Origin: Schmidtea polychroa
Taxonomy: Eukaryota
Reading direction: 5' to 3'
Assembly (NCBI GenBank): GCA_044892525.1
Contig: CM097886.1
Span: 84,754,001-84,818,000 of the forward strand
Length of the DNA stretch: 64,000 nt
Each line of letters opens with the position of its first letter. Position 1 is the stretch's first letter. Under the pieces are notes generated by a model. That model ran no database searches. It was not told the DNA's origin and worked only from the letters and a program-made list of their open reading frames with translations. Positions 5,463 to 60,943 of the stretch are shown piece after piece. Position numbers and translations under genes: made by a program.

Positions 5463-6567
5463 TTTGATTTTAGATTTTAAAATATTCGTTTATTAAATAT
5501 TAATACTTGATAATTTAAATAAACGGAAATAATTNNNNNNNNNNNNNNNNNNNNNNNNNNNNNNNNNNNNNNNNNNNNNNNNNNNNNNNNNNNNNNNNNN
5601 NNNNNNNNNNNNNNNNNNNNNNNNNNNNNNNNNNNNNNNNNNNNNNNNNNNNNNNNNNNNNNNNNNNNNNNNNNNNNNNNNNNTAACAAATATAAAAGCA
5701 AATAAAATTTTTAAACTAAAAAATTTACCTTTGATGAAATTTTAGACACAATTTTTTTGTTGTCAACTTGCTCTCAGTTTTCGATTTATGCCATTGTGGT
5801 AGGTTTGTTTTGTGTGAAATGATTTTTAAGTTAATAAATTTTTACATTTAATTTAGTTGTTTTTGTTCTTTTTATCATTCATTTCTAGTTTAAATTTTTA
5901 TGTTTTTTGAGTAATTTTAATAGTTATGGTGGAGTGGAACTTACTATTAGCCAAGGATCAGGAGAAATTCTCTGTCTTCAGATCTTGTGGGTTAAAGGCA
6001 GTTTCAAACACCCAGCTGATTTGATTTGTCACGGAGGGCCTTCGTCGAGTTGATCGCTGACATCTTTTTATGGATTATAGTGAGTTAGGCTAGTAATCAA
6101 GAAAGTAAGATCGATTGTAAGTAGAGAAGATTTAGTTTTGGGGTAACATTATAGAAACATCGAGTAACTAGGATTAAATATAGGTCAGAATAAGAAATAT
6201 AGGCAGATCCCTGTTCAAATTTTCCGAAGAATAAGTCGAATATCCTTAAACATTGCAGAAAGTATAGCACAACATTTACGAACAAGAAAATAAGGGCAGA
6301 TCCCTGCGCAAAATTTTCGAAAGTAACATCGACTAACATCCAGCAATGAGGACCACAATAAAATGAATAAATGAATGGCAATAATCTAAGAGATAGATAA
6401 TGAACAGTGACGTAAGACCTTCTATCGGTAGTCCAGAAACTGAGAATGAAAATAAAATGAGGAGTAGTTTTAGCAGTAGAGCTCACCTGCTCATTGATTT
6501 TCAGATATTGTTTACATCACCAACATAATTGTTTCCATGGTTACGCAGATGGTATAAAGTAAAATAG

Positions 6568-6800
6568 TGGTGGGTTACAGGTAAGTATACCTTTTACGTA
6601 TTCGTGCTGTTTCCAGTGTAACCCAGAATACAAACGATTGCTTCTCCGCTTGATACCCGTTGAGCGATCAACGTTGGTACTGAATCAAGAGGGTGAGTGC
6701 TCGCAAAAAATGAGCGCGCTACTTGCACTATAATTGTCGAGCACTCCTTTGGGTTCACGAACTACCGTTAGAAGGTTTATGTCCGCTTTACATGGTCCCT
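6568..6800 (-). ncRNA. Conserved structured RNA motif, copy B
   Basis: Aligns by eye with 46905-47135(+) and 49577-49806(-). Stems are GAGUGCUCG/CGAGCACUC and CGUUGA-UCGC-UCAACG, with the AGUACCAA loop (plus strand 6674-6681) and a CUG-GAAA-CAG hairpin. Confidence 0.7.
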
Positions 6801-6900
6801 GTCGTCAGATAGTGCTCCCGATAACTTGTTAACGTATCTTGTATTCTCCCGCGTACCCCACCATTCGTATCAATCATCATTATTCATGGATCAATCTTTC

Positions 6901-6960
6901 CTAACTTCCCTGAAGATGGGCCGACTTTTCCGTCTTCGTTGATCTTCTTGCGTCTGACAT
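6901..6960 (-). pseudogene. Truncated accessory mini-ORF (MSDARRSTKTEKSAHLQGS) upstream of RNA copy B
   Basis: The ATG at 6960 immediately follows an acceptor-like TTAATCTCATTTAG, the same arrangement as at 45641, 58725 and 60464. Confidence 0.4.
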
Positions 6961-7714
6961 CTAAATGAGATTAATAAATTAAAGTAATAAATATTTAACT
7001 TAAATTAATAAATTAAATTAGTAAATCTTTGACTTAAATACTTGTTTTAAATGATGACATAACAGTCATTTATTTATCACCCCAAAGCGGTGAATTCAAA
7101 TTTTAATATTTATTTGGAATTTCAATTTTTAAGTAATTATTTATGAAATTGCCACAACTGAAAACGATTTTAAACCTGAAATAGAAACACTAGTCGAAGC
7201 ACACGGGTCTAAATTACTTAGTAAACCTTTCAGGAAAAGATGAATTTCCATTCATTATTGGAATTCTATCGGCTCTAAAAACGAATTTTATACTTACTGG
7301 ACGACAGAAATTAGTTGCCGAAATATTAGAACAGGCAAAATTAACACTGATGCTAAATTTTCGACATTGATTTTAAATTGCAAACAAGCTGCTAAATTGG
7401 TTTCGAAAAATGTACATGCCGATGATTTGTTGATGCTACTTTTCGCACAATATAAATGACATCGTAAAAATAACGGAATCGATTGAAGGATCAAAACTTA
7501 GTGACATTATGAAATGTTTGGTTGAGTTTTTGTTCTATTAAATATGACATGCCTTTTCTTTGGATTATTATTATTATTATTGAAGATGTTCAGATTTCGG
7601 ATTAGGGGGTTGTGATTGTTTGAGGTTGGATTGCAGGTATATATTGTTATTAATGTACGTAGAGATTTTATTATGTGAATTATTCGTGCAATAAATAGTC
7701 GATTACAGAAAGTT

Positions 7715-10175
7715 GCTTGCTTTCGTGGCCACACTGTGCTCAGTACAACAAGCCCTAGTGTTATGTAAGCAATGCAGCTACAGCCGAACCAAAAAAGCCC
7801 GTTTTAACCACAAATAGATCAATTTGAATCATATTTACCACCAAACTAAGTTGGTCACCACGAAGTATTTTAAAGCAGATACACTACACCGTTTACACAG
7901 TGCAGTCAACCGCCACTCCGGGTTGGTAAATCATTTTAATTCTTGCATTTGCAGGTTGTGGACCTCATACACTAGCATAGATGCTAGATTAGTTGGGATC
8001 TCGTGTTGAAATTGTCAACAACGGGGATCTCGGTCAATCCGTCATTGATAAAGATTAGAACATAATGATTAAAAAAATTGTCTGTAAACATGATAACTCA
8101 TATATTAATGAAAATCCCTTACTTACAATCTCAGAAAAATCAAGATCAAAATTTTGGCATAGGAGTAAGCATTTAAAAGTGACAAAATGTGTTAGTTTAT
8201 ATAGTCTCTGTTTGGTGTGAAAGTAGGCATGCGTGCATTGATGCAGTAAAACAAATTCGAATTATTTTAATTCTCGAACATTCGATTTTTAATTTTTATC
8301 GATTTTGATGGCGATTTTTCAGTAAGAATTTTTGTTTTTCTTTTTGGGATTTTGTTTTTGAATTATTTTTTATTAAATTTGCCTCCATGATGGATTTCAG
8401 CATTTCCAGAACATTCCATGCTAAATTTAATCTATTTCTTATTTTGAAATTATTTTTTATGATTTCTTTTCTAAAATTTTTATTTTTTATAAATTTTATT
8501 GAGTTGTTTGGCGGTCATGATGGATTTCGCCATTTTTATGAATTGTTCTGGATTTTTATTCAAAATATCGATATAATTTTCTTTACGGAAGATTTTATGG
8601 AGATTTTCTTTAATTTTCTTTTTTAATTTTTACTAATCGCCTTTATTCGAATTTGTTTTTGTTGTTTTATGTCTTTCGGTTATATTTGAGTAAGTTTTTG
8701 TGTAATGCTTCTTGCTCGTGTTTTATTTTATTTTTAATTCAGATGTTTTATTTTTGGGTATATTATCTCTCTATTATCATTGTTTACTTGGTGTTTTTAT
8801 ATATTTTTATTTAAGTGAACTTAATGCTGGGTATGTGTGTTGTGTACTGACACTTTTCGTCCTCTTCCTAACTTTGGGTTTAGAAATCAGTTCTAACCCA
8901 GCAATAGTCATGAAGTCGTTTGAGAAAGAGTTGATTGAAAATCCATAAGAAACCCCATTTTGGGCTAGAACTGATTTCTAGACCCAAAAAACTAAGTTCA
9001 TGACTAAAATGTGTCGGTACATAACCTGCAACTCAGCACTAAGGTAAATTAAAATCAAAACATATAAAACACCAATTAAACATTAATAATTAAGAAAACA
9101 ACACACAAAAAATTAAAACATCCAAATAAATATAAAATAAACCCAACAAGAAGTATTGCACAAAATCCTACTCATATATAGCAGAAAAACATACAAACAA
9201 CCGAAAACAAATCCGAATAATGGCAATTTGAAAAATTAAAGAGAAAATTAAATAAATAAAGAAAATTATTTAGAGAAAATTACAGCAAATTTCAATTATA
9301 AAACCCAGAATAATCCATAAAAATGGCGAAATCCATAATGGCCACCGAACGACCTAATAAAATTTATAAAAATAAATATTTTAATTAAAATATAAAAATA
9401 TTTTTAAGGAAAATTTACAAAAAACAATTTCAAAATTAAAAATTGGAATCAATTTAACATGGAATGTTCTGAAAATGCCCAAATCCATCATGGATGTAAA
9501 TTTAGCAAAAAAATAATTACAAAATAAAATTTTGATAAATAAAACAAAAATTATTGCGAAAAAACCGCCAAGAAAATTAATAAAAATCAAAACTAGAAAA
9601 TTCTAGAATTAAAATAATTCTGATTTGTTTTACTGCACTAATACATGCACACAAACTCACACACCAAAAGTAAGGCATATATACCGACGCATTTCAGTCA
9701 CAGACACACTCTTCTTAGCCAAATTTATTTTGTGTAATTTTTGGAAGAAATCGATCAGTAAGGAACTTTCATTACTATATGTGTTATCATGCTTAAAAAT
9801 ATTTTCTTTTTTTTATCTTCAATTTTCATCAATGATCTAAAACTAACTAAAACTCCCGTTTTTGACAATTTCAACACGAGATCCCAACCAATCCGGCATC
9901 TATACAATTATATGAGGTCCACAACCTGCAAACACAAGAAGCAAAATGATTTCCAACCCGGAGTGGCGGATGACTACACTGTGTATACGGTGTGGTGTAC
10001 CTGCTTGAAGATACTTCATGGTAACCAACTTAGTTAATGAAACCATGCTTGATGATAAACATAATTCTAAATAATTTATTTGTGGTTATAACGGGGTTTT
10101 TGGTTCGGCTGTAGCTGCGGTTCCTACATAACCATAGGGCTTCGAAGTACCGTGTCGAGTCGGCCGGGAAATCAA
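7715..10175. mobile_element. Foldback-type element: ~2.4-kb imperfect palindrome
   Basis: Paired inverted blocks: 7780-8030 vs 9860-10120, 8180-8330 vs 9560-9710, 8390-8430 vs 9460-9490 and 8500-8560 vs 9300-9350. The centre has TAGAAATCAGTTCTA / TAGAACTGATTTCTA. No coding capacity and no TSD were identified. Confidence 0.8.
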
Positions 10176-23819: not shown

Positions 23820-23934
23820 AGTTATGTAAAGTTTTGTTTGAATAATATTCGTTTTAATGTGTTTTTGAAAAATATATTTTATTGAATTATTATTGATTTA
23901 TTTTATGAATTTAGAAGTTGAGGACATCATAACT
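23820..23934 (+). repeat. 5' LTR (AGTTATG...CATAACT)
   Basis: Direct repeat of 28270-28384 with a 7-bp perfect terminal inverted repeat. Confidence 0.93.
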
Positions 23935-44384: not shown

Positions 44385-45640
44385 TTATATACAATCATTC
44401 ATACTACTTATATATACTACTCATTAACTTGTATTTCTGATAAAAATTTATAATTTGGGATTTTATAAATTACCCCCATAACCATCTATAATAATATTAG
44501 TGTATACATCATTCATAAAATTTATTTTACAAATTCACCCTATAATGTCCTATTTATAAATATTCGTCTTAATATTACTGAAATATACCATTTGTAAATA
44601 TACACTCCTAAGACATTATAAATTCCAATCACACCCCCATATTTTTTATAACAACTTATACACCTACATGTACATCTATACACTGATATATATACTACTT
44701 ATAAATGAAAATCATAAATTTCATTCTGATGAATCACCCCCCCCCCCTTCATATTCTCCCCTTACCTATACTACTATTTGAATGTATTATGAAAAAGGTA
44801 TAATAAAAATTTCATAAATTGGAGATCTTTGTTTATAATTCTATATATATCTATATCATATTATGTGTATATTACCTATAAATGACAATTTAAAAACAAA
44901 ACCCCTTTATGATATTCTACATTGTTAGAATACAAAAACTATAAATTTCCTAGCTATAATCTTAGTTTATGAATATTTCTCACTTATTATAAATGTCTAT
45001 ATCTCTCACTAAAATAACAGATCAAATCATTAAGAAGATTTATTCATATCACATGGCGAAATAATTTGAGTTTGGATTGAGAATGCGTGGTTTTTCGTTC
45101 ACTGCCTGCGGGGTGGTCGTCTCCACTTTGGGTGGCTTTGGGGAACTACAATGTGAATTGTAAGCACAGGTACTAAAGAAAATGGGCATTACCTTTTTGC
45201 TATTCCTCAGAAGGTCGAATACTCCTTTACTAGGTTTAGAGTTCCGATGTGAGTCGCTCGTGGGTTGGCAGCCGATGGCGTTTCCCGGCTGTGGCTTTCT
45301 TGGATTGCTGGTTCTACAATTTATAAATTGACATTATTGCTTAGTTAAAGTCTATTTTTAATTTAATTAATCAGATTGTTATATAAAATTAGTTTATAAA
45401 TCTTAAATTAATAAAATTTAAAATTGTTATATTTAAATCTCCATTTGAAACATTATAACAAACATAAATTAGAATACGTACATTAGGGAAGTTCCTTTCT
45501 TGAAGAATTATGGGGATATGATGGTGATTAGTATATTCAGTTGAAATTTTTTTTAATCCGACAAAGGTACGGAAACGCATGAGGAGAAACTGGAAAATAA
45601 TCATATTTATCTGAAAAGAAATAGAAAATATTTATTTAGA

Positions 45641-46012
45641 ATGTCGCAGTCCAGTAATCACAGCGAGGAGGACCTGTATGACGTGACGACCACACGCCTT
45701 CGCTCCAGACATATCTGGCACCACATCCACCGGTGGAGCCAGGGACGGGACCTAGATTGCACCAATCGAGTGATCCGGGAAGGCCCCGAGACAAACGCAC
45801 CAGTATGGGTAAAGACCGAGCCGGACAACAATTGGCTCGTCGAGGCCAGAGACCGTACTATGGATGCCATCGCTAGAGCCCAGTGGGAACTCCGTTTGAT
45901 CGAGGCTCAGCTCCGTGCCGTCGAAACTGGTCGGCCAATAGAAGAAGTGGACGTGGAGCCGACGCCGGCGAAGAAACGGGGTCGCCCCCGCAAGAAGGCT
46001 TTCCGAAACTGA
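45641..46012 (+). CDS. Accessory ORF A: 123-aa protein with C-terminal AT-hook
   Basis: GC-rich clean ORF ending PAKKRGRPRKK. The ATG lies one base after an acceptor-like TTTATTTAG. Confidence 0.6.
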   Translation: MSQSSNHSEEDLYDVTTTRLRSRHIWHHIHRWSQGRDLDCTNRVIREGPETNAPVWVKTEPDNNWLVEARDRTMDAIARAQWELRLIEAQLRAVETGRPIEEVDVEPTPAKKRGRPRKKAFRN

Positions 46013-46323
46013 GATCTCGGTGGTCTCGGGGACGGTCTTACATTTCATTCTTTGACTTTAGTGATTTGACATGACCCCTTTGCTTAATAAACGTATTGTT
46101 TTCTTTATTTCGTTATGTCAATCTACATGTTATCATTTTAATAAGTTATGCTAATCGAGACGTTATCATCTAGACTATCAACTCAACAGAAAATTTATGC
46201 TCACCCGTAGGACGTTAGTGTTTTATTCCACTTACATGGGCATAGTTCCTCGGATATGGGTACCCGAGCTTCGTTTCATAGGGATCGGCAATTATAAGGA
46301 GATAAAATTACGGTAAAAGTCGG

Positions 46324-46818
46324 TTGATTCTATATTTTAATTCAGTGTACAAACTGTTCGAAGGACTCCGGAAGGACAGGGAGCAGGCGCAGCAGCAGGC
46401 GGAGCGGCTGCAACTTAGCGTCAATCAGTTCAAGGAACGCTGTCGGAAGATGGAGCAGACTTGGATTCGCCCTGAGGTGGCACACAAGTACTTGAGACAG
46501 ATTGAACAACTGCAGCTCCAGAGTACCCAAGACAAAACCGAAATACGAGCCCTAAAAATACAGATGCGGGCCATGGAAACAAAATTAAATCAGCGGGCCA
46601 TCGACGAGCACGTCACGGCAGCTATCCGGCCCATGACGATAGAACTGGCCGAAATGCACCCAACCAAGCCCAAGGCCAAGCGAAAACGACTAGGCCGGGA
46701 TGGTCGTGAGCGACTCAAACGACTGAGACTAGCAGAGCAAAGATTAGAAGAAGAGGCAAGAAAGTCAGTGCTACTTGACAGTTCATGTGCAGGACCGATG
46801 GATGTAAATAAAACGTAG
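46324..46818 (+). CDS. Accessory ORF B: coiled-coil + basic (NLS-like) protein; 5' end probably spliced at 46345
   Basis: KERCRKMEQTWIRP motif and KAKRKRLGR. It is homologous by eye to 50763-50972(-) and, more weakly, to 58725-59483(+). Confidence 0.62.
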   Translation: MILYFNSVYKLFEGLRKDREQAQQQAERLQLSVNQFKERCRKMEQTWIRPEVAHKYLRQIEQLQLQSTQDKTEIRALKIQMRAMETKLNQRAIDEHVTAAIRPMTIELAEMHPTKPKAKRKRLGRDGRERLKRLRLAEQRLEEEARKSVLLDSSCAGPMDVNKT

Positions 46819-46904
46819 ATAGTTGAAGTCGAGTTCTTGTATGTTGAATGATGAAGCTGAATGATGAGATGGGCATGGCGTTTTTGGGAAAACAATAGAA
46901 GTAG

Positions 46905-47135
46905 GGGACCAATGAAATCGGACACAAATCTTCTACCGATAGTCCGTGGACCCAAAGAGTGCTTGACAATTATAGTGCAAGTAGTGCGCTCACTTTTTGC
47001 GAGTACTCACCCAGTTGACACAGTACCAACGGTGATCGCTCATCGGGTGTCAATTGGCGAAAGCAAGCTTGTATTCTGGGTTACGCTGGAAACAGCACGA
47101 AAGGGTGAAATGTCTGACCACCTGTAACCCACCAA
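46905..47135 (+). ncRNA. Conserved structured RNA motif, copy A
   Basis: Stems are 46957-46965/47000-47008, 47015-47021/47047-47053, 47030-47035/47040-47045 and 47077-47084/47124-47131. The loop AGTACCAA is at 47022-47029 and GCTG-GAAA-CAGC is at 47085-47096. Confidence 0.75.
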
Positions 47136-49576
47136 TAATTTAACATAGTTGTCGAGTCCACAACTCACTGCGATTTTGTAGGTCTATGATCTCACATGCA
47201 GAGTTAAAATGAAGTGGACTCCACTAAAGGTGCTACTGACTTCATGGTTCAGGCCACGGATGTAGTGGGTTAATTATTTCTGAAGTGGCCAACATAGTTT
47301 CGGCTGTGTTGGCTTAAATGAAATCAATAACCTGGTTCGACTTTGTAGTACCTTTTGCTGCAGCGTTGACCGCACATAACACTAAGATCTATCGTAGTGA
47401 GTTCAGTGTGGTCACGAAAATAGGAAAATTTTAATTAATGCGACCATTTTTATCTAATAATAACATATTCAAATCCATGTTAAAATTCTATCATTGTATC
47501 TCACACTAGGACTCAATAAACGGAGGAAAGCTCCAGACTTAATATAATTACAATTCCACAATTAATTAACAAACTATGTAGTCGATTAGTTCTATAATAT
47601 ATGGCAATAATCATGATAAAATTTTCTGTTATAGTTGGTAAAATCGTAGTCGGTACATTTTACTTCAAATAATTATATAGTAACTAGAGACAATGTTTAA
47701 AATTCTAACCAGATTTTTCTATTTATTGTATAGTTTTTCAGTTTGTATAACCAAAGATCATTTTAAAAATATAAATGACCCATAATATATATATTTGATT
47801 TAAAAATATAATTTATAATTTCAATAAATGACCCCCTCAAATCATATAACCGTTAATTATTATCCTAAATGCACTAATAGATTACTATTATGTATATTTG
47901 GCTTATATTTGATTAAAAAGTATAATTTATAATTTTCTTAAAGGACCACCCCCCTAAAATCACAAATTAGCCAAATATCATCTTAGATATACCAACATAA
48001 ATTACCCATGTATTCTATCTATGAGGTAGAATGTATAAACCTTCTTAAACGACCTCTCCCACATTACATGATGATCGAAGGCAATATTATCTCTGACAAT
48101 TCGAATTATGTGTCCATACGTGTATTCACATTGCAAATTTATAAACTCATAAATATCTTGAGGAGCTAGCACATGTAATTCCCAATGACGCGATCGAAAT
48201 CGATCTTTCATTCAAAGTTTGACTACCTAAAATTACAAAATTTATGAAAATCATAAATCCTCCAAATAAGAGGGAAATGTGATGAAAGGTGGGACGTAGC
48301 AAGTGACTGCACCAGCGGGGAAATATAGGGTCCAAAGTGGGAGCCAGTGAGTCGTCGTTGGTGGAGCCTCTCTTGCGACCTACAATTAAAAATATGAATA
48401 TAAATATTGTTGAGGTCCGTAAATTAAAATAAATTTAAATGAAATTTAGGTTAATAATTTAAATAAAAAGTAAGTGAAGAAAAAAGACAAATAAAAGCGG
48501 GATCATACACAGAATCGATAGTAAAAGAAAGTGTGATGGGAGCAGTATTAGAAAATACCAAAAGCAATTACGAAAGGCAAGAATCCGGAAATCCGAGAAA
48601 AATCAATAAATTGAAGAATCATCGAAATCGAATGGGGGAAAACGGGACAGGTATAGAGTAGCTAATGGTCAGCAAGATGATGGTTAGGGATTTATCAGAG
48701 AATGGTTAGGAAGGGTCGAAAAACATTCAAATGTATGAAAACAGAAAACGTTAATTAATTAATTAATTGGCTAATAGAAAACCCGAGCTAATGGGAAACC
48801 CGAGCCAATAGAGAACCCGAGAGATGAAGGAAACCTGAGCTGGGTAAACAAGAAGAAAAGTAAACAGAAGGAAGATTTGGGCCCATTAGTTTGACACAAT
48901 GATTAATTGGAAAAGAGCAAGGAGAAGATAGTGCGTGTAGAAAGGCCAGACTGGCTATTAATTATCTTGGTTCGTTGGACCATTATGGGTGACAGCCGAA
49001 GCAGATACGTGGAAGCAAATGTCAAGTGAAATATTGGCTCGGCAATAATCATTTGTCATCCCGATTTCGAGGAGTATATAAGGAAAGAGAAAATCAGAGC
49101 AAATTGGCATTTTGCCTCAGGTAGGGTAAGAAGAAACCGAGCTTAGGAAAAGGCGAAAACGAATCTAGGAGATTAGGGAAAAAGAAGAGATAGAATAAGA
49201 ATAAAAAGCGTGAAAAGTATCAAATCAAACAGAAAAAGAGGAAAACGTGGGTCAAGAGAACCTAAGAAAATAAAAGGTGAATATTATCTTTATGAAAGAA
49301 TCAACACCGAGCGGAGAATCGGTCAAACGTAGTTTTGATTATTAATTGTAAAGTGGTGAGAAAAGATTGTGAATTTGTTATTTCAATATACGTTGGGTCG
49401 TTATTGTTTTGATTTAAAGGACACGAGGAGTCAGAGGGAACCGACTTAAATTAACCAAAAACCCAACAATATTTAATAAATATTTGGAAAACTAATTACA
49501 TATAAAAACATAATTAGATGATTGAGACAACGGAAATTTTGTAAAAATTATAAACGTACTAAAGGAGTAATACCGT

Positions 49577-49806
49577 TGGTGGGTTACTGATGATTAAATA
49601 TTTATTCTTTAGTGCTGTTACCAGCGCAACCCAAAATAAAACATTGTTTTACCGCTTGATACCCGTTGAGTAATCAACTTTGGTACTGTATCAAGTGGGT
49701 GAGTACTCGCATAAAGTGAGCGCTTTATCGGCACTATAATTTTCGGGTACTCTATGGGTCCACGGACTACCGTTAGAAGACATGTGTCCGATTTACTCAG
49801 GTCCCT
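49577..49806 (-). ncRNA. Conserved structured RNA motif, copy C
   Basis: GAGUACCCG/CGAGUACUC, CUUGAUAC/GUAUCAAG, GUUGA-UUAC-UCAAC, AGUACCAA (plus strand 49680-49687) and GCUG-GUAA-CAGC. Confidence 0.75.
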
Positions 49807-50762
49807 TGCTTTAATTGTTTTCCCAAACACCCTTATACAAATTTACTGTCATCAAACGATCATAAATCACAACAACATGTACATTAATTTATTGAAATCC
49901 GTACATTCAATCACAACTAGGATGCGGAAGTTGATTTGGTGTTTTTGTTAGGTTCGACGGGTATGTATTCGAACTAACACAAAAACAGCCCGATATAGGT
50001 GAGCGGAAAAGAGATAAGGGAGTTTACCTAAATTTAACGCGATAGTCAACCCAGAAATTGGTTAACCCTTTTTCCAATAATATTCGTAACGAAACAACAC
50101 AAAAAAGATACGTGCTGACGTTACTGCTTCCCTTGTTAAAATTAGTTTTATTTAACTGAATAAATTTATATTTATATTTATATTTATTTAGATATGAACA
50201 ATAAAAACTAACTAATTTAATTTTTTCCTTATTGAAATTCCTCCCAGTAGATAGCCAAATCCACAGATGGGTTGTCGAAATGAATCCTAATAATCTTCTT
50301 CCTTTGATCTCTTCTAAATTTCTCCAAAGAATATTGGAGCTAAGTGACAATTTGACTTGATAATAAATTTCCAAGAGATTCTTAAATTCCTTTTCTTCCG
50401 ATCAATAAAATGAATACTAAAACAGAAATTCGTCCAATGAGAAATTTGTTTCCTGATCTAATTTTAATTTTTTCTGATCTGTGATCTTTTTCTCTCTAGA
50501 TTTTCTCCTCCCATCAATATAATTTTGCTGATATTTATATAATTTATTTATTATAAATCTATTAATAGTAATTATTTAATTACTATTTTTATTATAAATT
50601 TTTTAAAAAATTGCTATTTTTGTTACGAATCTATTTTTAGTAATTATTTATTACTATTTATATTTTAATTCCAATTTTAGTAATTTTTAAATACTATTTA
50701 TATTATAATTCTAATTTTAGTAATTAATTATTATTTAATTTCAAAACTTTTGATTCCGGTTC

Positions 50763-50972
50763 CTACTGAACTCCAACATTTTCTAGTCGCTCCTGTTCCG
50801 CCAACCAGGCTCTTTTCAATTTTTCATGAGTGTTTCGCCCTAATTGCTTGCGTTTCGGTTTACTCGACTGTGCACGCGGTTATTTTTCGGCTAGTTCTAT
50901 GGGCATTTGGCGGATCTGAGCTTTGGTAGTTTCATTCATGAACTTCACGTTCAATTTGACCTCAAGCGGTCC
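50763..50972 (-). pseudogene. Fragment of accessory ORF B family (absent from the ORF track)
   Basis: LEVKLNVKFMNETTKAQIRQMPIELAEK*PRAQSSKPKRKQLGRNTHEKLKRAWLAEQERLE aligns with METKLNQRAIDEHVTAAIRPMTIELAEMHPTKPKAKRKRLGRDGRERLKRLRLAEQRLE. Confidence 0.75.
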
Positions 50973-51049: not shown

Positions 51050-51179
51050 TTATATAAATATTGTATTTTAATAAATATTATATTTCTGTATGTTAATGTA
51101 TTTTTTTTAAAATAAGAGGTCGATCTTGAAACCAAAAAGTAGCTCTGGCCATGGAAAAGTTTACCGACCCATTCTATAC

Positions 51180-52430
51180 CAGGGGTCGGTAAACTTTTCT
51201 ATGGCCAGAGCTACTTTTTGGTTTCAAGATCGACCTCTTATTTAAAAAAAAATATTAACATACAGAAATATAATATTTATTAAAACAATTAATGTGATGA
51301 ATGGAATTGGTTTTCATTCAATAGTTTCTTCATATCCGGAGAATAGTTTGTAACTGCCAATCTTAAACAATTATCCAGATTTTTATTGGTAAGTTATGTT
51401 CGATATTTATACTTTATGAATTTCATATTTGAAAATACGGATTGACACAAGTACGTTGATCCAAAGAGTCAAAATATTTTTAATGCAACATCTCTTAAAA
51501 ACGAATACTCATTCGGTGTTACATGGCTCCAAAATTCCAATTGATTTTCAGAAAATTCGCAACTCAACTCTATATCATTTGGTATTGAAATTAATTCCAT
51601 TTTTAGCTGTGCTTTATCATATTGGTTATTAATAACTTCCAAGAGAGTTTCGATATTAATATTTACGAAAGGATACATAAAAAATTTCACAATTGGTTCG
51701 ATGTTGCGAAAATTTGCGAAGCGTTTTTCAAACTCTTCTAATAAACTAATAACAATTGGTCAACAACTTTCACAGAAAATGAGTTAAACTATTAATCTCT
51801 TCTTTTAAATTAGTAAAGTGTTTCAAATCATATTCTATTAGGTTGATTTCCCACATGATTAATTTTTGGTTAAAACATTGCACCGCACTTATCAAATGCA
51901 TTATATTTTTATCTTTCCATTGCAGATATGCATTTAATTCATTTAATCTCACCGTAATATCAGTAAGAAACGCTAGATCTCTAAGCCATGAATCATTGCT
52001 TAGCTCCTGATGACTTCCTTTCAAAAATAAACTTATTCGTGGTAACAATTCTCTAAAACGCTTTAAATATTTTCCCTTACTTAGCCAATGAACTTCTGTA
52101 TGTAATAACAGATCACCATATTGACAATCGAGCTCGCCGTTAAGTCCTTTAAATAAACGTCTTTGCAGTGATTTTCCTCTTAAAGAATAACTAATTTTGA
52201 CTACAAGTTTCATAACAGAATTCATGTTCAAAAATTTAGCACAAAGGGCTTGCTGATGTATTATACAGTGATAACTTATGAATTCAGGATATCTTTGATC
52301 TTTTTTTACATAATGCAATAAAAATGCAATAGGGAAAACTAAATTAGAAGTTAGTCTTTTCTCTGAGTCCGGTATGACAGTAGGCATGGTTGGTTTTGCA
52401 GGGATTTACGATGCTGGAATAGCAACGACC
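51180..52430 (-). mobile_element. 5'-truncated, decayed hAT (Charlie-like) element
   Basis: TIR CAGGGGTCGGTAAACTTTT at 51180. Fragments include YHCIIHQQALC, EVHWLSKG, DLAFLTDI and FGSTYLCQSVFS, with stops and frameshifts. Confidence 0.85.
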
Positions 52431-55554: not shown

Positions 55555-55845
55555 GATATTTTTTTCCAATTTCAACACTAATTATTTTTTCCATTGAATT
55601 AACTAAAAAGAGAGCTTGAAGAATATAAATCAGTAATGTATAGATGTTTTTGATACTCACGAATTTTCGGCACTGCCTTTTTCAAGTGAATTTTAAAAAG
55701 CAAATTTTGTAACAATTAAAATAAATATTTAATTTAACATGAAATACAAAAACAAGCTAAATTAGCTTATAAAACGTTTATTCAATTATATAAGTAAGAA
55801 ACTTTAAAACATATGCTGAGCGAAACTAGTATCTGTTGGGCTAAA

Positions 55846-56563
55846 CTTCGAGAGTGTCGAAAATCGGGCTAAGAACGAATAAATAGGATAAAACAAATTT
55901 TCAATAAAATCACGAGAAATATAAGAATAACTAAATCAGATAACAATAAAAGAAATAAGAATATAAAAGAAATAAAAATAACTAATAAAACAATAGAATG
56001 CATAAGGCGAAATAAGGTGAAATTACCCAACACACATGGTAGGAAAAGGAAAAAACATAAAATAACAAAAACGTAAGAAATAAACGAGAAATTTAAGAAA
56101 ATAAAATAGAAATCCTCAAATAAATGCATACGCGAATTAAAACAAAAATTATATTATGATAAAATGACAATAAACGCGCAGGAAAAACGGGAGGGAAATA
56201 ATAAAAAATAGAAAAATAAATAAAATAATAATAAAAATAGGAAAAAGTCATCAAAATATACCTTATTACATGAAAAAACATAAAAATCATAATAAATAAT
56301 AATATTACACGCAAGTCACGTCCTGATTGGACGAAAAATAATATATAAGGAATATGGAAAATCTGTAAAGTACCACTTTTAATCGCTACTCTACAGGTAA
56401 AAATTTTTATTGTTTTATACGACCACTTTTAATCGCTACTCTACAGCATCCACTTTGACTACGATTCAACGAAAACAAAATCGACTACCAGTATCTAGCG
56501 GAACCAAAAGGAAAACGATTTAGTAGAATCTTGAACATTACCATTTTTTGACACTCTCGAAGG
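55846..56563. mobile_element. MITE-like element
   Basis: Inverted ends CTTCGAGAGTGTCGAAAA / TTTTGACACTCTCGAAG. An internal 25-bp direct repeat ACCACTTTTAATCGCTACTCTACAG occurs at ~56371 and ~56422. Confidence 0.5.
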
Positions 56564-56889
56564 ATATTATTTGGTAAGTATGGTGATTGTTTTAAATGCT
56601 TTTTATGATGATGATATTAAATATTTATATGAGTTTGATATGGAATAAATTCTTTTAGTATATTAAATGTTTTAAGTTTCGAAAGATGTTCCTCTCTCTC
56701 TATGGTGCTGGCGACGATGTCGTCTGGGACTCCAATATGATGCGGGAAATCAAATAAATCCGTGGACAAAGCCACGAGGATGGCGGCTAGAAGTGACATT
56801 GAAAATCGGGACGAAGCTAGATTTATAGCAATAGAGTTGATTGAACGATTGTGATTATTATGGGACGGCATCATATTCGAGACTCAGAC

Positions 56890-56902
56890 GGCGTGGTCGC
56901 CA
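56890..56902 (-). promoter_or_regulatory. Orphan primer-binding-site-like sequence TGGCGACCACGCC
   Basis: 13/13 identical to the PBS of the gypsy element at 23934. It is preceded on the minus strand by an AT-rich stretch with several AATAAA. Confidence 0.5.
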
Positions 56903-58724
56903 GACAAGTAAATTTTATTATAACGATTAATTTCATAAAACCATGCCATTTATTTAATCGTATTTATTACAAAAATGTTCTGAAATTGACGAATTGAGGA
57001 GATCGAATCGTCCTTCCTGGCGGTCTAAGGATGGTGGCAGCGATGATTGCCGTCCTTAGGTGGGTCAGGAGGGGTGAGGACATACGGCGGACGATATTAC
57101 CACTGCACGGGAAATTCTGTCACTGAGTGATGTCTGCGTTCGGCATAGGAAATACTATTTTTGGAGAAGATGAAATTAAGGCACCTGAGGCAAATAAAAA
57201 ATCCACAGAGATTCGCCGGAGAGATTCGAAATACAATTCTTTAAAATTTGGCATAATCATCATTTTGTTAAGTCCAGGTTCGACATCGTTACGTCTTAAG
57301 TCCCCGAGTTACAGTGGGCTGAACACGAAGGGATCATAGTCTTCGGTTGCAAACAGAAAATTCCAACGAGATTAGAGTAGACTGTCACCAAGCTTTTCGG
57401 TAGGGATTTGGATCGCTAAGGAGTTAACGACAAAATCCATCATCGGTGTACTTTTAAGTTGAATTGTTGATTCTTAGGCTATAGATAAGGATTGTTTTTC
57501 TGAAAATAGAGTAAATAAATCCTGAGAAATTATCAGAACACCTACGATAGATGCGAGGGAAGCCGTTGTCGAAGTTATCAGATAACTGCCAAATGAATTT
57601 CAGTCTGATTATACCCAACCGAATTAGATGACTAAAGGGAATCTGAACAGTGAGAGAGAGCGATAACCGTCATCACCATAGATACAGCGAGAGCGTTGAC
57701 AGACGGGTATCTTAAGTCGACTACGATAGTAGATAAATTATCAGCTCCAATTCTCCAGTGATTTGTCGCGTAATGGGTAAGGCTGACACGCATAACGAAT
57801 CGGGTAGAGATTTCTAAGAGTCCGGATCTTGATAATACACGCCTACCAGTACGTCACATGGAATTCCCTCTCAGTATGCCGCCAACCAATCCACATAAAA
57901 AGAAAATTTGTTCGGTGACCTAATCATTACATAACAATGACGAAGTTAAACGAGATAGTAGCATTGCGTGTAGGGACAACAGGGGAGATCGTATCCCCGT
58001 AAATAATTTTGCTAGGAGTATTAGACAGCCACTCTCGAAAACATAATCCGAGCCAGACACACCAAGACATAGTGGTCAACAGAATAGTAGAAATTGACAA
58101 TACACAAGCATGCATTGCAACACATCATATTCAGCACTCAAGTAAATGACAGTATTTAGTCACAACCACATACTGTGTTAGATTCGTCATGACAACCTCA
58201 CGGCAAAAATCTGAACTAAATAAAATTTTCAATTCACGCAGTTCAAATAAATATATATTTTATGATTTCGTTTTCAATTTCGATCAATATTAAAATAATG
58301 CAAAGAAGCAAGGCCGAAATTTTTGTTATTTACACAAACTTAACTTCATAGAACTTAGTAATGAGGAGTAGACTTATCAATGTTGGACAATAAGGGATAT
58401 ATTAATGGTGTTAAAGGTTATAGTACTCGAACGATGGAACATTATAAAGGGGAGGTCAAGCCCGTAAAATTATACCGATTGATGAAACTATAATAAATGA
58501 ATTCTGTCTAAAATTCCCATTTTCCTCTCATAAAATTGTAAAGAACGAGTGAGTTAACTTGAATGTTTGAGTTTGAATGAATACGAGTATCGATCAACGA
58601 CACGGGTGTGTAGATCACTATTGAATAGTTTGATTTGGAAACTTGTAAATCTCATATGCGAAATGCAAATAACGTTCCAGAAAAACTGTTACGATCGACA
58701 ATAAATTTTTCTCTTAATCTTTAG

Positions 58725-59483
58725 ATGAATACCTCGACCAGCTCTGGAAAAATTCCTCGTCCTTGTTTCTCCTGCGCCGATAAAAATGCAGATATCGCGC
58801 AGCTCCATCTATACATCGGGGCTCTAAAGAAGAGAATTGACCTCTATGAGGGTACGTGGTTCTCCCCGCCACGAATGAAGGAGGAACGAAAGAAAATCCT
58901 CCGGTTAGAACATTGTAGAGATAGCTTGCTGGAGGAAAGCCGATGCCAACGGCTTACAATCAAAGCCCAATCGGAAGCCCTCCACAAGGTATACACGGAG
59001 GCAGAACTGGCCAAGCGGGTTCGGGAATTCCCCGTCTTAGATAGCTCTAACATTTTCCCACTGCATCATCAGACGTCTCAAGTAACTACATCGAACTGTC
59101 AAGGGCATGGCTCTTATCTGCCGCCCATTCCAGCCCCGGTATTATCTGGATGTCAGCCGCTGGCAGGTGGCTCTTCCGACCCAATTTTGGCTCCAGTGTT
59201 GTTGGCACCCTCCGCCGCATCTATCGCGAATAACCAGATGTCTTCCCGCAAAAGGAAACGGCCAACCCGGGCCGCCAAGAATCAGAAACGTCGAGATGCG
59301 ATGGCAGCACTGGAGGCTTCGTTATCCGTGGCCCAGTCCACCATCGAAGAGATTTCGAGCTCGCATGTGATTCCAGCCAGAGAAATATTTCGAGTAGTGC
59401 CGGCCGACGGTATTAAGTACCTCGCAGATCGTCGCTTACCTGTGGACATTGATGAGGTGTTCGCAGACAGTGAAGCATTTTGA
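58725..59483 (+). CDS. Accessory ORF B-like protein, 252 aa (CxxC, coiled coil, Pro/Ser-rich linker, basic RKRKR)
   Basis: The ATG directly follows CTCTTAATCTTTAG. LKKRIDLYEGTWFSP parallels FKERCRKMEQTWIRP of 46324-46818. Confidence 0.65.
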   Translation: MNTSTSSGKIPRPCFSCADKNADIAQLHLYIGALKKRIDLYEGTWFSPPRMKEERKKILRLEHCRDSLLEESRCQRLTIKAQSEALHKVYTEAELAKRVREFPVLDSSNIFPLHHQTSQVTTSNCQGHGSYLPPIPAPVLSGCQPLAGGSSDPILAPVLLAPSAASIANNQMSSRKRKRPTRAAKNQKRRDAMAALEASLSVAQSTIEEISSSHVIPAREIFRVVPADGIKYLADRRLPVDIDEVFADSEAF

Positions 59484-59783
59484 TGGAGCTGGAGCAGCAG
59501 CGGGACGTGTCCGTCCGATTTGACATGCGTATTGACCGACTCTCTTGTATATGGCGAACACTTGTTTTATTCTTTTGTTTTTGTGCTTCAGACTTTGATG
59601 AAAGAAGTTTGATTATTTGTAATTTAATGCGTGTAATTTAATTTAATATAAGTATGGACATTTAATGAGTTATTTTACGAGAATGATGAGGGAAACGCCC
59701 GATTTGATTGATGAACCGAATGGATGACATTGAAGGAAGGTTGTCCCCTCGGACCAGGGTCGACCCGAGAATGAATGAGATTA

Positions 59784-59925
59784 TGGGTAAGTCCTTCTAA
59801 GGCACCTTAGAACCTGTACCGCGAGTGGGTTAAGAGTAGTCCTAAGGCAGGGGCTCACCTGTTAACCTACTCCAACCCGTGTGAGCAGCACCAACGTGGA
59901 ACACCGCCACGGGCTCACATGAGGG
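59784..59925 (+). ncRNA. Conserved structured RNA motif, divergent copy D
   Basis: Same topology with different stem sequences: GAGUAG/CUACUC and UGUGAGC-AGCACCAA-CGUGG(7)CCACG-G-GCUCACA (59880-59919), with an upstream CUUCUA..UAG hairpin. Confidence 0.68.
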
Positions 59926-60463
59926 AATATTAATAAGGTCATGTGATGTATGTTGGGTAAATCTGAGACCGATGTATGGGATTGCATGTCCGACTACGAA
60001 AATATTTCTTCTCCCCTTCATACACCAACATGATTTTTGGGGGTTCAGCCGGGATCTGATTTCGAATTGTTTGATTGCCTATTATTGTATTACGATGTGT
60101 TAGACTAACAATTTAATTAATTATAATAAAAAAGGGAATCGGGACGGAAATGAATCGATATTATAGTGTATTAAGATGATGATACGAACTGTTTTTGCGT
60201 GAAATAGAACATGCTATGAACAAAAACGAACCTAAATAAGTTTGAATGAATGTGATTGAATATGAAGAGAAGAGAAAATGGGAATTGACTAATTTTGTTT
60301 AATTTTAAATGAATTAAATTAAAAAAGAATTATTAAAGATTGAATAAAATACATAAACTAGAAACAATAGCGAACAAAGCCAAACGAACATTGATTATAA
60401 CACGATAATATTATTTTTATTTTTATAAGTGAGACCGAGTAATGACAACATACTTTTTTAGAT

Positions 60464-60943
60464 ATGTCAGAAGCTAGGAAACATCTACAACGACTAAGCC
60501 GGTTCGTCGACATAGAAAACGATTCCATAAAGACGTTAAGAGAAAAACTGCAACAAATAGAAACCCTAGAGCAACAACGCCACAACGCACCGCTGATATC
60601 CAAACAAAACTTTCTAACCGACAGATTGGGGTCAACAAATACCGACACCGACTTGTCTGTCCATTACCAATGGATGCAGCAACGACTCGACGACCCCGCT
60701 CTGAACCTCGAATATGTGAGAATACGCGAACAAGTAAAAACTCTGTCTCAGAGAATACGAACCTCGATAATAGAAAAAGCAGCGGCCTTGAGAACTTGTA
60801 ACATTTGTAAGACGCGACCTGCCAGAATTCTAATTCTACCTTGTGGACACCTTAGCCATTGCGACGAATGCGCCGTCAGTTTAACGCATTGCTCTTTATG
60901 TGTATGTGCAATAAAGGAGAAGCACACGATTTACTTCAGTTAA
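60464..60943 (+). CDS. Coiled-coil + C-terminal IAP/MDM2-type RING (C3HC4) protein, putative E3 ligase
   Basis: CNICKTRPARILILPCGHLSHCDECAVSLTHCSLCVCAIKEKHTIYFS ends the protein. No BIR domain is present. The ATG lies 2 nt after TACTTTTTTAG. Confidence 0.8.
   Translation: MSEARKHLQRLSRFVDIENDSIKTLREKLQQIETLEQQRHNAPLISKQNFLTDRLGSTNTDTDLSVHYQWMQQRLDDPALNLEYVRIREQVKTLSQRIRTSIIEKAAALRTCNICKTRPARILILPCGHLSHCDECAVSLTHCSLCVCAIKEKHTIYFS

Follow-up and report, generated by a model that had tools for sequence, protein, structure and literature searches.

What a small basic protein is doing immediately upstream of a structured RNA is the question raised by one locus in the 64,000-nt stretch of Schmidtea polychroa DNA analysed here (the window). 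The initial annotation had taken the two for a protein–RNA pair, in which, for example, a Rev/Rex-like basic protein would recognize its cis element. We found that the reading frame, hereafter ORF A, and the RNA motif almost certainly both lie in the long terminal repeat (LTR) of giant Burro-type Ty3/gypsy elements. Mobile DNA makes up most of the window, including hAT sequences, a Polinton-like block and a small gypsy element.

In the 781-Mb, AT-rich genome the ORF A protein has at least 150 scored matches, and the genome-wide protein matches include pairs of identical copies on the same strand about 30.8 kb apart. Element E1, which one such pair marks, is 36.3 kb long in total and has LTRs of 5571 bp that are 99.84% identical, TG..CA ends and a 4-bp target duplication; its primer site begins 8 nt past the LTR and is complementary to the host tRNA-Pro(TGG). 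Its interior encodes Gag knuckles, MATH, a fusion glycoprotein, PR-RT-RH-IN, ankyrin, TRAF and BIR-RING. Defining traits of Burro-type elements were found: a size above 30 kb with near-identical multi-kilobase LTRs, both in E1 and in the 30.6-kb element of family B, and the succession PR-RT-RH-IN, the fusion glycoprotein lying between gag and protease. The MATH/TRAF, BIR, RING and ankyrin cargo agrees with the passages of PMC6431247 that describe Burro.

The window holds several LTRs of this type. ORF A lies in the 3' part of a family A LTR of about 5.3–5.6 kb (44385–47134, +), which ends in ...CACCA with no primer site following and is 94.8% identical to another copy (L057) over 2789 bp and 81% identical to the LTR of E1. 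This copy is a 5'-truncated solo or 3' LTR: its first ~2.5 kb are missing, so the promoter, the leader exon and the donor are gone. The 5' LTR of the family B element (4.2 kb; 55834–60030, +) is 99.8% identical to its own 3' LTR, with a 4-bp target duplication; the element continues past the window end, its primer-binding site for the host tRNA-Pro(TGG) lies at 60038–60055 (+) with one mismatch in this copy, and its first internal ORF is a RING-finger accessory gene (60464–60943, +). At 6568–8903 (−) lies an internally deleted LTR of the non-autonomous family A3, with the RNA at 6568–6806 and no ORF A. Family A3 is a young 20-kb element present in many near-identical copies, with LTRs 99.9% identical; it has kept the RNA, the primer site and gag (L110-L112), and pol, env and the two LTR ORFs are missing from it.

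Other features of these elements and of the window were noted in passing. The primer site starts 7–8 nt after the LTR end (L031:9704-9730; 60031–60055 in the window) and the 3' LTR is not preceded by a purine run, two points on which the usual retroelement layout differs. The tRNA-Pro(TGG) genes form a 475-bp tandem array (L173-L180; G000:C1:130.90 Mb), with 2164 pattern matches genome-wide. E1 and A4 have a common U3 (90%) and ORFs only about 50% identical, and one locus where an A-type ORF is joined to an A3-type LTR end (L016) is probably a template-switch recombinant. A 2.4-kb inverted repeat in the window (7750–10142; 74%) consists of two LTR starts placed back to back at 8903/8960. The Polinton/adintovirus-like block (31183–39147, −) has integrase, double jelly roll, PLA2-like and protein X-like ORFs, and the compact gypsy element (23820–28384, +) has 115-bp repeats at 98%.

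ORF A has two relatives in the window, as initially annotated. The first is a broken 3' fragment of an A2-family ORF with an in-frame stop (50763–50972, −); its alignment with ORF A was reproduced by tblastn (53% identity over 62 aa with 50966–50781 on the minus strand, E 1e-9). Where this fragment is broken, a 220-bp near-perfect palindrome (51066–51285) adjoins a (TA)n tract. The second is ORF B (58725–59483, +), a protein of 252 aa at the equivalent LTR position, with a CxxC, a coiled coil, a basic patch and an acidic/hydrophobic tail. Here tblastn with the window ORF gave no match and direct BLAST is weak (E 0.006); the homology that had been claimed is upheld by alignment of the A and B family profiles (probability 96–97%, E 1e-9/1e-10, 51–52 columns). 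The A profile scores 20.7–28.1 bits on all 12 B proteins, against at most 2.9 bits on reversed B proteins and at most 5.9 bits on seven other element ORFs. With the B profile, the window's own subfamily, which is the farthest from B, scores 8.6 bits, in the basic region; A2-type copies, about 45–55% identical to A, match B at E 1e-3 to 1e-5. The A/B homology is seen over the N-terminal ~100 residues, with a weak extension to the basic patch. The motif on which the link had been based, K-x-R-x4-E-x-T-W-x-x-P, is indeed present in both window proteins (46346–46818 and 58725–59483), but in its strict form it is found in only 3/19 A-type and 7/12 B-type proteins, and what characterizes the family is its core, E-x-[TS]-W-x-x-P (18/19 and 12/12). 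As judged from their sequences, ORF A and ORF B are thus one family of distant homologues.

Outside this genome a homologue was found only on two short ENA contigs, which encode an unnamed protein of 157 aa. A protein database search with ORF A returned 76 candidates, none at E ≤ 0.01, a PDB sequence search three matches (E 0.19–0.67), and Pfam over 19 members weak matches only, the best being DUF4515 (5/19, E 0.0026, under its cut-off for the member shown). In the Atlas, ORF A falls with generic coiled coils and ORF B has no match scoring 0.9 or more. The absence of a named homologue, a window copy with no ATG and the many broken A2 copies (among those matching the junction pattern, only 2 of 12 are uninterrupted) could suggest that no functional gene exists here and that the frame is open by chance or as a side effect of LTR DNA conservation. 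This explanation, already largely refuted, is barely credible: the median dN/dS is 0.10 for ORF A (254 pairs with dS > 0.1, from 25 distinct A copies) and 0.076 for ORF B (143 pairs, 18 B copies), values from copies chosen by protein similarity, a choice that favours intact ones; dN/dS is 0.046 in frame versus 1.9–3.9 in three other frames, and ORF A shows third-position bias. The homologues on the ENA contigs and the exact splice that makes the ATG, described below, also argue against it. ORF A is under strong purifying selection, and it is a real, undescribed accessory gene with no named homologue.

The window copy has no ATG of its own; the start codon of this gene is made by splicing. The reading frame had been drawn from a TTG at 46324; the coding exon actually begins at 46346 (46346–46818, +; 157 aa, pI ~10) and ends ~320 nt upstream of the LTR end. 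The TTG is contained in a phase 1 3' splice acceptor, a T-rich tract followed by CAG (46321–46345, +). Protein conservation starts directly past the T-rich tract and AG, with diverged DNA upstream, the acceptor search pattern itself having required the AG. Alignment of LTRs revealed, upstream, a TATA box near +655, an initiator-like motif, an exon of ~70 nt and a GT donor at +746, which would place the transcription start at the TATA/Inr near +655/+675. The leader exon ends in A ahead of the GT donor in 8/8 LTRs, from six ORF-A-bearing elements; in two ORF-less A3-type LTRs it ends in G and in T, with another potential donor in the latter. When the genome was searched for ORF A starts led by ATG, 18 hits were obtained, three of which (L191, L192 and L203; two events) join the leader exon exactly to ORF A (A|TG). 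L191 and L192 are both LTRs of one element with an intact target duplication (G000:C1:78.92-78.95 Mb), and they differ at one position in 1561 bp. The other 15 hits were rejected as splices, being acceptor point changes or rearrangements. Among the sister loci, sampled from pattern hits (12/41 and 4/4), the leader exon is followed by GT in 13/13 examined. Family B shows the same arrangement: a GT..AG intron runs from the leader to ORF B (56574–58724, +), and a sister element has lost the corresponding 2151 nt from each of its two LTRs (L040, L041), with one substitution beside the joint. The ORF A start codon is thus created by splicing a short leader exon across a ~4-kb intron (A|TG), and it follows that the TTG at 46324 is intronic.

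Two alternatives for the start, a 32-nt intron directly ahead of the acceptor and the leader ATGCCAA used as a start codon, were discarded; for each of them the phases differ among subfamilies and some meet stops. A 25-nt sequence is present twice downstream of the B-type TATA box (56372–56446, +), its two copies flanking a short GT..AG stretch, and this repeat is kept even in copies that lack the large intron. In contigs of runs guessed to be RNA, which give neither starts, ends nor levels, ORF A is covered with no GT..AG joint there, and one contig crosses the acceptor unspliced.

The intron-less copies also locate the gene on the element RNA. Reverse transcription copies changes in the 5' part of the RNA into both LTRs; the intron is lost from both LTRs, and the gene therefore sits in the 5' portion of the RNA that is reverse-transcribed. 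ORF A lies between the promoter and the primer site, in an R/U5 of ~4.8 kb. At least 819 copies are of the acceptor (unspliced) type for three spliced genomic loci, which indicates that replication mostly uses RNA retaining the ~4-kb intron. At the ORF A stop, 328 nt ahead of the LTR end, an AATAAA (46807–46812, +) is a candidate poly(A) signal, and AATAAA, ATTAAA or AATACA is found 290–335 nt ahead of the LTR end in all 12 ORF-bearing loci with a located end. From its position, the ORF A mRNA probably stops ahead of the terminal RNA. In one run an A-run loose end lies 22 nt past an AATAAA at LTR +390 (L031:4522), upstream of the putative transcription start and in an A-rich tract; it reflects either internal priming or the true end of some transcripts.

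The RNA motif that follows ORF A is the folded end of the LTR (R/U5; seven helices, 46898–47134, +), detected by BLAST as a ~235–260-nt repeat at 46880–47142 (+), 49576–49830 (−) and 6560–6800 (−). Based on 19 A-type copies, a covariance model delimits the folded LTR end of the A2-family copy (49577–49811, −) and a distant homologue at the end of the family B LTR (59766–60030, +; E 4e-8, a rough value). In the A-type RNA, 97% of the alignment cells in the seven named helices are paired and 5/45 pairs change on both sides, as high as in none of 500 shuffles, the structure having been taken from one member, which inflates the slide control; compared with the first alignment, the one counted leaves out L082 (non-homologous upstream), L137, L140, L148 and L150 and includes L160 and L158. 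The B-type LTR ends covary at 15/46 pairs, and the window copy alone folds modestly (z −1.8). Rfam has no family for the terminal RNA, its six matches at E ≤ 1 falling elsewhere. The RNA had been placed 3' of the ORF on the same strand at about 90, 950 and 300 nt, in good agreement with the distances of about 80, 950 and 283 nt measured here; the 950-nt gap of the A2 copy contains an insertion of ~835 bp.

This adjacency is the main reason to consider that the ORF A protein recognizes the folded LTR end directly downstream, either as a response element or as a packaging/priming chaperone. The association is fixed (58 of 59 loci picked by ORF A carry the terminal RNA), the RNA is conserved and covarying with a detectable B-type homologue, and it would occur only in read-through RNA. 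However, the observed co-occurrence of protein and RNA, on which their pairing had been proposed, is explained by one common LTR, and because both lie in it, their co-occurrence is no evidence of binding. The converse association, of an ORF always upstream of the RNA, does not hold, as a fourth RNA copy (6568–6806, −) and family A3 are devoid of the ORF: the A3 RNA is 83% identical to that of A, and ORF A was found in 0/20 loci within ~1.7 kb upstream and is also absent from one whole A3 element. Furthermore, the RNA ends exactly at the LTR end and abuts the tRNA-Pro primer site. We therefore consider that recognition of this LTR end by the ORF A protein is unlikely. Since the non-autonomous A3 keeps this RNA in the absence of ORF A, the terminal RNA is most likely a priming/packaging structure beside the primer site. 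Additional pairing of the LTR end with the primer tRNA was limited, outside the primer site, to matches of 6–9 nt, none of them common to all five elements, and pairing of the conserved ACCAAC loop with the 5' end of tRNA-Pro was rejected.

A second folded segment within the leader intron also weakens the case for the LTR end as the target. This stable fold, at LTR ~+960–1260 (for example L031:5150-5270), is present in 4/4 LTR families, with z of −2.9 to −5.1 (20 shuffles per window). The spliced element has lost the intronic fold and kept the terminal RNA, and it still integrated, which fits with the terminal RNA being a replication signal and with the intronic fold mattering only to the unspliced RNA. 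If a response element exists, the intronic fold is at least as good a candidate as the terminal RNA.

The initial annotation had also noted a coiled coil and a basic cluster, and structure prediction agrees with it. AlphaFold places helices at residues 2–38, 42–103 and 117–145 of ORF A (pLDDT 86, pTM 0.39). A parallel coiled-coil dimer interface is predicted for residues 4–83 (46357–46596, +), kinked at E-x-[TS]-W-x-x-P (46432–46473); the homodimer scores an ipSAE of 0.55 versus 0.00 for three controls, and dimer runs agree in at least 89% of contacts, with pLDDT of at least 74. The dimer mark was reached by 21/30 microbial solved homodimers and 0/23 monomers, and in eukaryotes by 17/29 solved homodimers and 0/30 monomers, although long coiled coils may pass it from predictor memory. 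A basic segment with 5 K and 6 R in 20 residues runs into helix 117–145 (46666–46722, +), and this patch, with 9–11 K+R per 20 residues of which about half are lysine, is kept in the A and B families. The model thus points to a product that homodimerizes through a parallel coiled coil and carries a basic helix. Foldseek of the predicted fold against PDB and viral libraries gave nothing at E ≤ 0.001. The export-signal pattern has two matches in ORF A versus a shuffle mean of 1.5, which is chance level; the first is kept in 17/19 members but includes a proline, and the second lies inside the predicted dimer interface and is kept in 4/19.

A dimer of this kind might bind DNA. A-type LTRs, and only these, carry a second gene, ORF C (45641–46012, +; 123 aa), which has its own ATG just past an AG, a conserved Trp-rich core, a short coil and no Pfam match. 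It ends with RGRPRK, which we take to be AT-hook-like, and is followed by an AATAAA (46086–46091, +), a candidate poly(A) signal. ORF C is not a paralogue of ORF A (hhalign probability 7%). ORF A could accordingly encode a transcription or chromatin regulator that controls the LTR promoter by binding DNA through its basic helices, perhaps together with the ORF C protein, for which foamy-virus Tas and bZIP factors are models. The RGRP of the neighbouring ORF C (9/9 aligned copies), the very A-rich U3, the predicted parallel coiled coil with its basic helix, and the acidic/hydrophobic tail of the B family, which presumably resembles an activation domain, all fit this role. However, a basic region placed after the coil and a proline linker is the reverse of the bZIP order, ORF A has no acidic tail, and no Pfam DNA-binding family matches at cut-off, so that a DNA-binding regulator seems doubtful.

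A third possible target is the host. The other accessory genes of the element (RING, TRAF/MATH, BIR-RING) are aimed at the host, and the Burro1 BIR-RING is reported to protect stem cells in the lines of PMC13465017 that cite Lee et al. 2026. ORF A might in the same way be a coiled-coil adaptor with a nuclear/nucleolar signal, acting on silencing or cell survival and indifferent to the neighbouring RNA, and its LTR location could let solo LTRs express it. On the other hand, ORF A contains no host-like domain, and it is kept at the same position across families whose LTR DNA cannot be aligned, which is more like a core function than swapped cargo. A host-directed factor is, in our view, rather improbable.

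The explanation that we tentatively put first, and consider quite possible, is that the ORF A product acts in trans on the element's own RNA in a Rev-like manner, favouring unspliced genome RNA. The element has a strong donor close to the cap site, and its primer site is preceded by several acceptors and poly(A) signals, yet it is the unspliced RNA that is copied. A spliced, dimeric, basic protein from an element that retains its intron makes a Rev-like job plausible, and the retention of the cis RNA in A3, which dropped the gene, fits a trans-acting factor. By analogy with known systems and from the structural model, splicing of the leader exon to ORF A would yield the ATG and hence the small basic protein; this protein would be nuclear and would homodimerize through its coiled coil, its basic helices would bind element RNA, and the unspliced, read-through genome RNA would then survive and leave the nucleus. 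Against this, the basic patch, half of it lysine, is equally readable as a nuclear/nucleolar signal, the excess of unspliced copies can arise from weak splicing, poly(A) addition right after the ORF or a packaging bias, and the other accessory genes, as mentioned above, are directed at the host. Finally, sequence, Pfam, PDB and Foldseek searches gave no homology or fold likeness of ORF A to Rev, Rex, Rec or Rem; Rev-like proteins being themselves very diverse, this bars membership by descent and not the job, and ORF A is not filed as a Rev-family member. In the complete scenario, a Ty3/gypsy element would have independently evolved a Rev/Rex-type switch: a U5-leader gene would be turned on only when splicing creates its start codon, and its product, an RNA-binding coiled-coil dimer, would license intron-retaining genome RNA via a folded element of the LTR and would also act in trans for non-autonomous relatives. 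This scenario is somewhat doubtful.

Whatever its role, this gene has an unusual arrangement: it is selected and spliced, it lies in an R/U5 of ~5 kb, and a 4-kb intron divides its start codon. The intron-less copies provide a concrete gene model and are natural records of the structure of element mRNA, and solo LTRs may be self-contained protein-coding units. Coding within an LTR with expression by splicing is known for HIV nef, MMTV sag and foamy-virus bel, which lie in U3 at the 3' end of the RNA. ORF A resembles them in having its coding sequence inside the LTR and spliced expression, and differs in lying downstream of the promoter, in the ~4.8-kb R/U5, and in the interruption of its start codon by the intron. 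Hepatitis delta antigen, with an N-terminal coiled coil then basic segments, is the nearest named Atlas cluster for ORF B (score 0.78, at chance level, with no alignment); this is a likeness of architecture only and is a lead only.

The elements described here resemble Burro/GYPSM1, as outlined in PMC6431247, in their size of more than 30 kb, LTRs of ~5 kb, Gag knuckles, MATH, fusion glycoprotein between gag and protease, PR-RT-RH-IN, ankyrin, BIR-RING and accessory ORFs; they differ in that section 7 of that article names no LTR protein gene, leader splicing or LTR-end RNA. Our literature search returned no paper on LTR-encoded ORFs in Burro or on Rev-like proteins in gypsy elements, and the figures or supplements of Grohme 2018 and Lee 2026 may show these ORFs. 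According to the sections of PMC5568270 and PMC10746203 devoted to them, Rev-like proteins typically have a coiled coil and an arginine-rich motif and are made from a fully spliced mRNA; many retroviruses export unspliced RNA via cis elements alone, and Rev-like analogues outside retroviruses are called rare in the part of the latter review that bears on this point (PMC10746203). ORF A is similar to HIV Rev, HTLV Rex, HERV-K Rec and MMTV Rem, as presented in the same sections, in being a small basic protein from a spliced mRNA with a predicted coiled-coil oligomer and a basic helix, and its element, like complex retroviruses, must keep an intron in its genome RNA (PMC5568270, PMC10746203). It differs from them in belonging to Ty3/gypsy and not to Retroviridae, and in the location of the gene, in the 5' R/U5 leader and not around env. 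If ORF A is Rev-like, the regulated export of unspliced RNA would extend from complex retroviruses to Ty3/gypsy elements.
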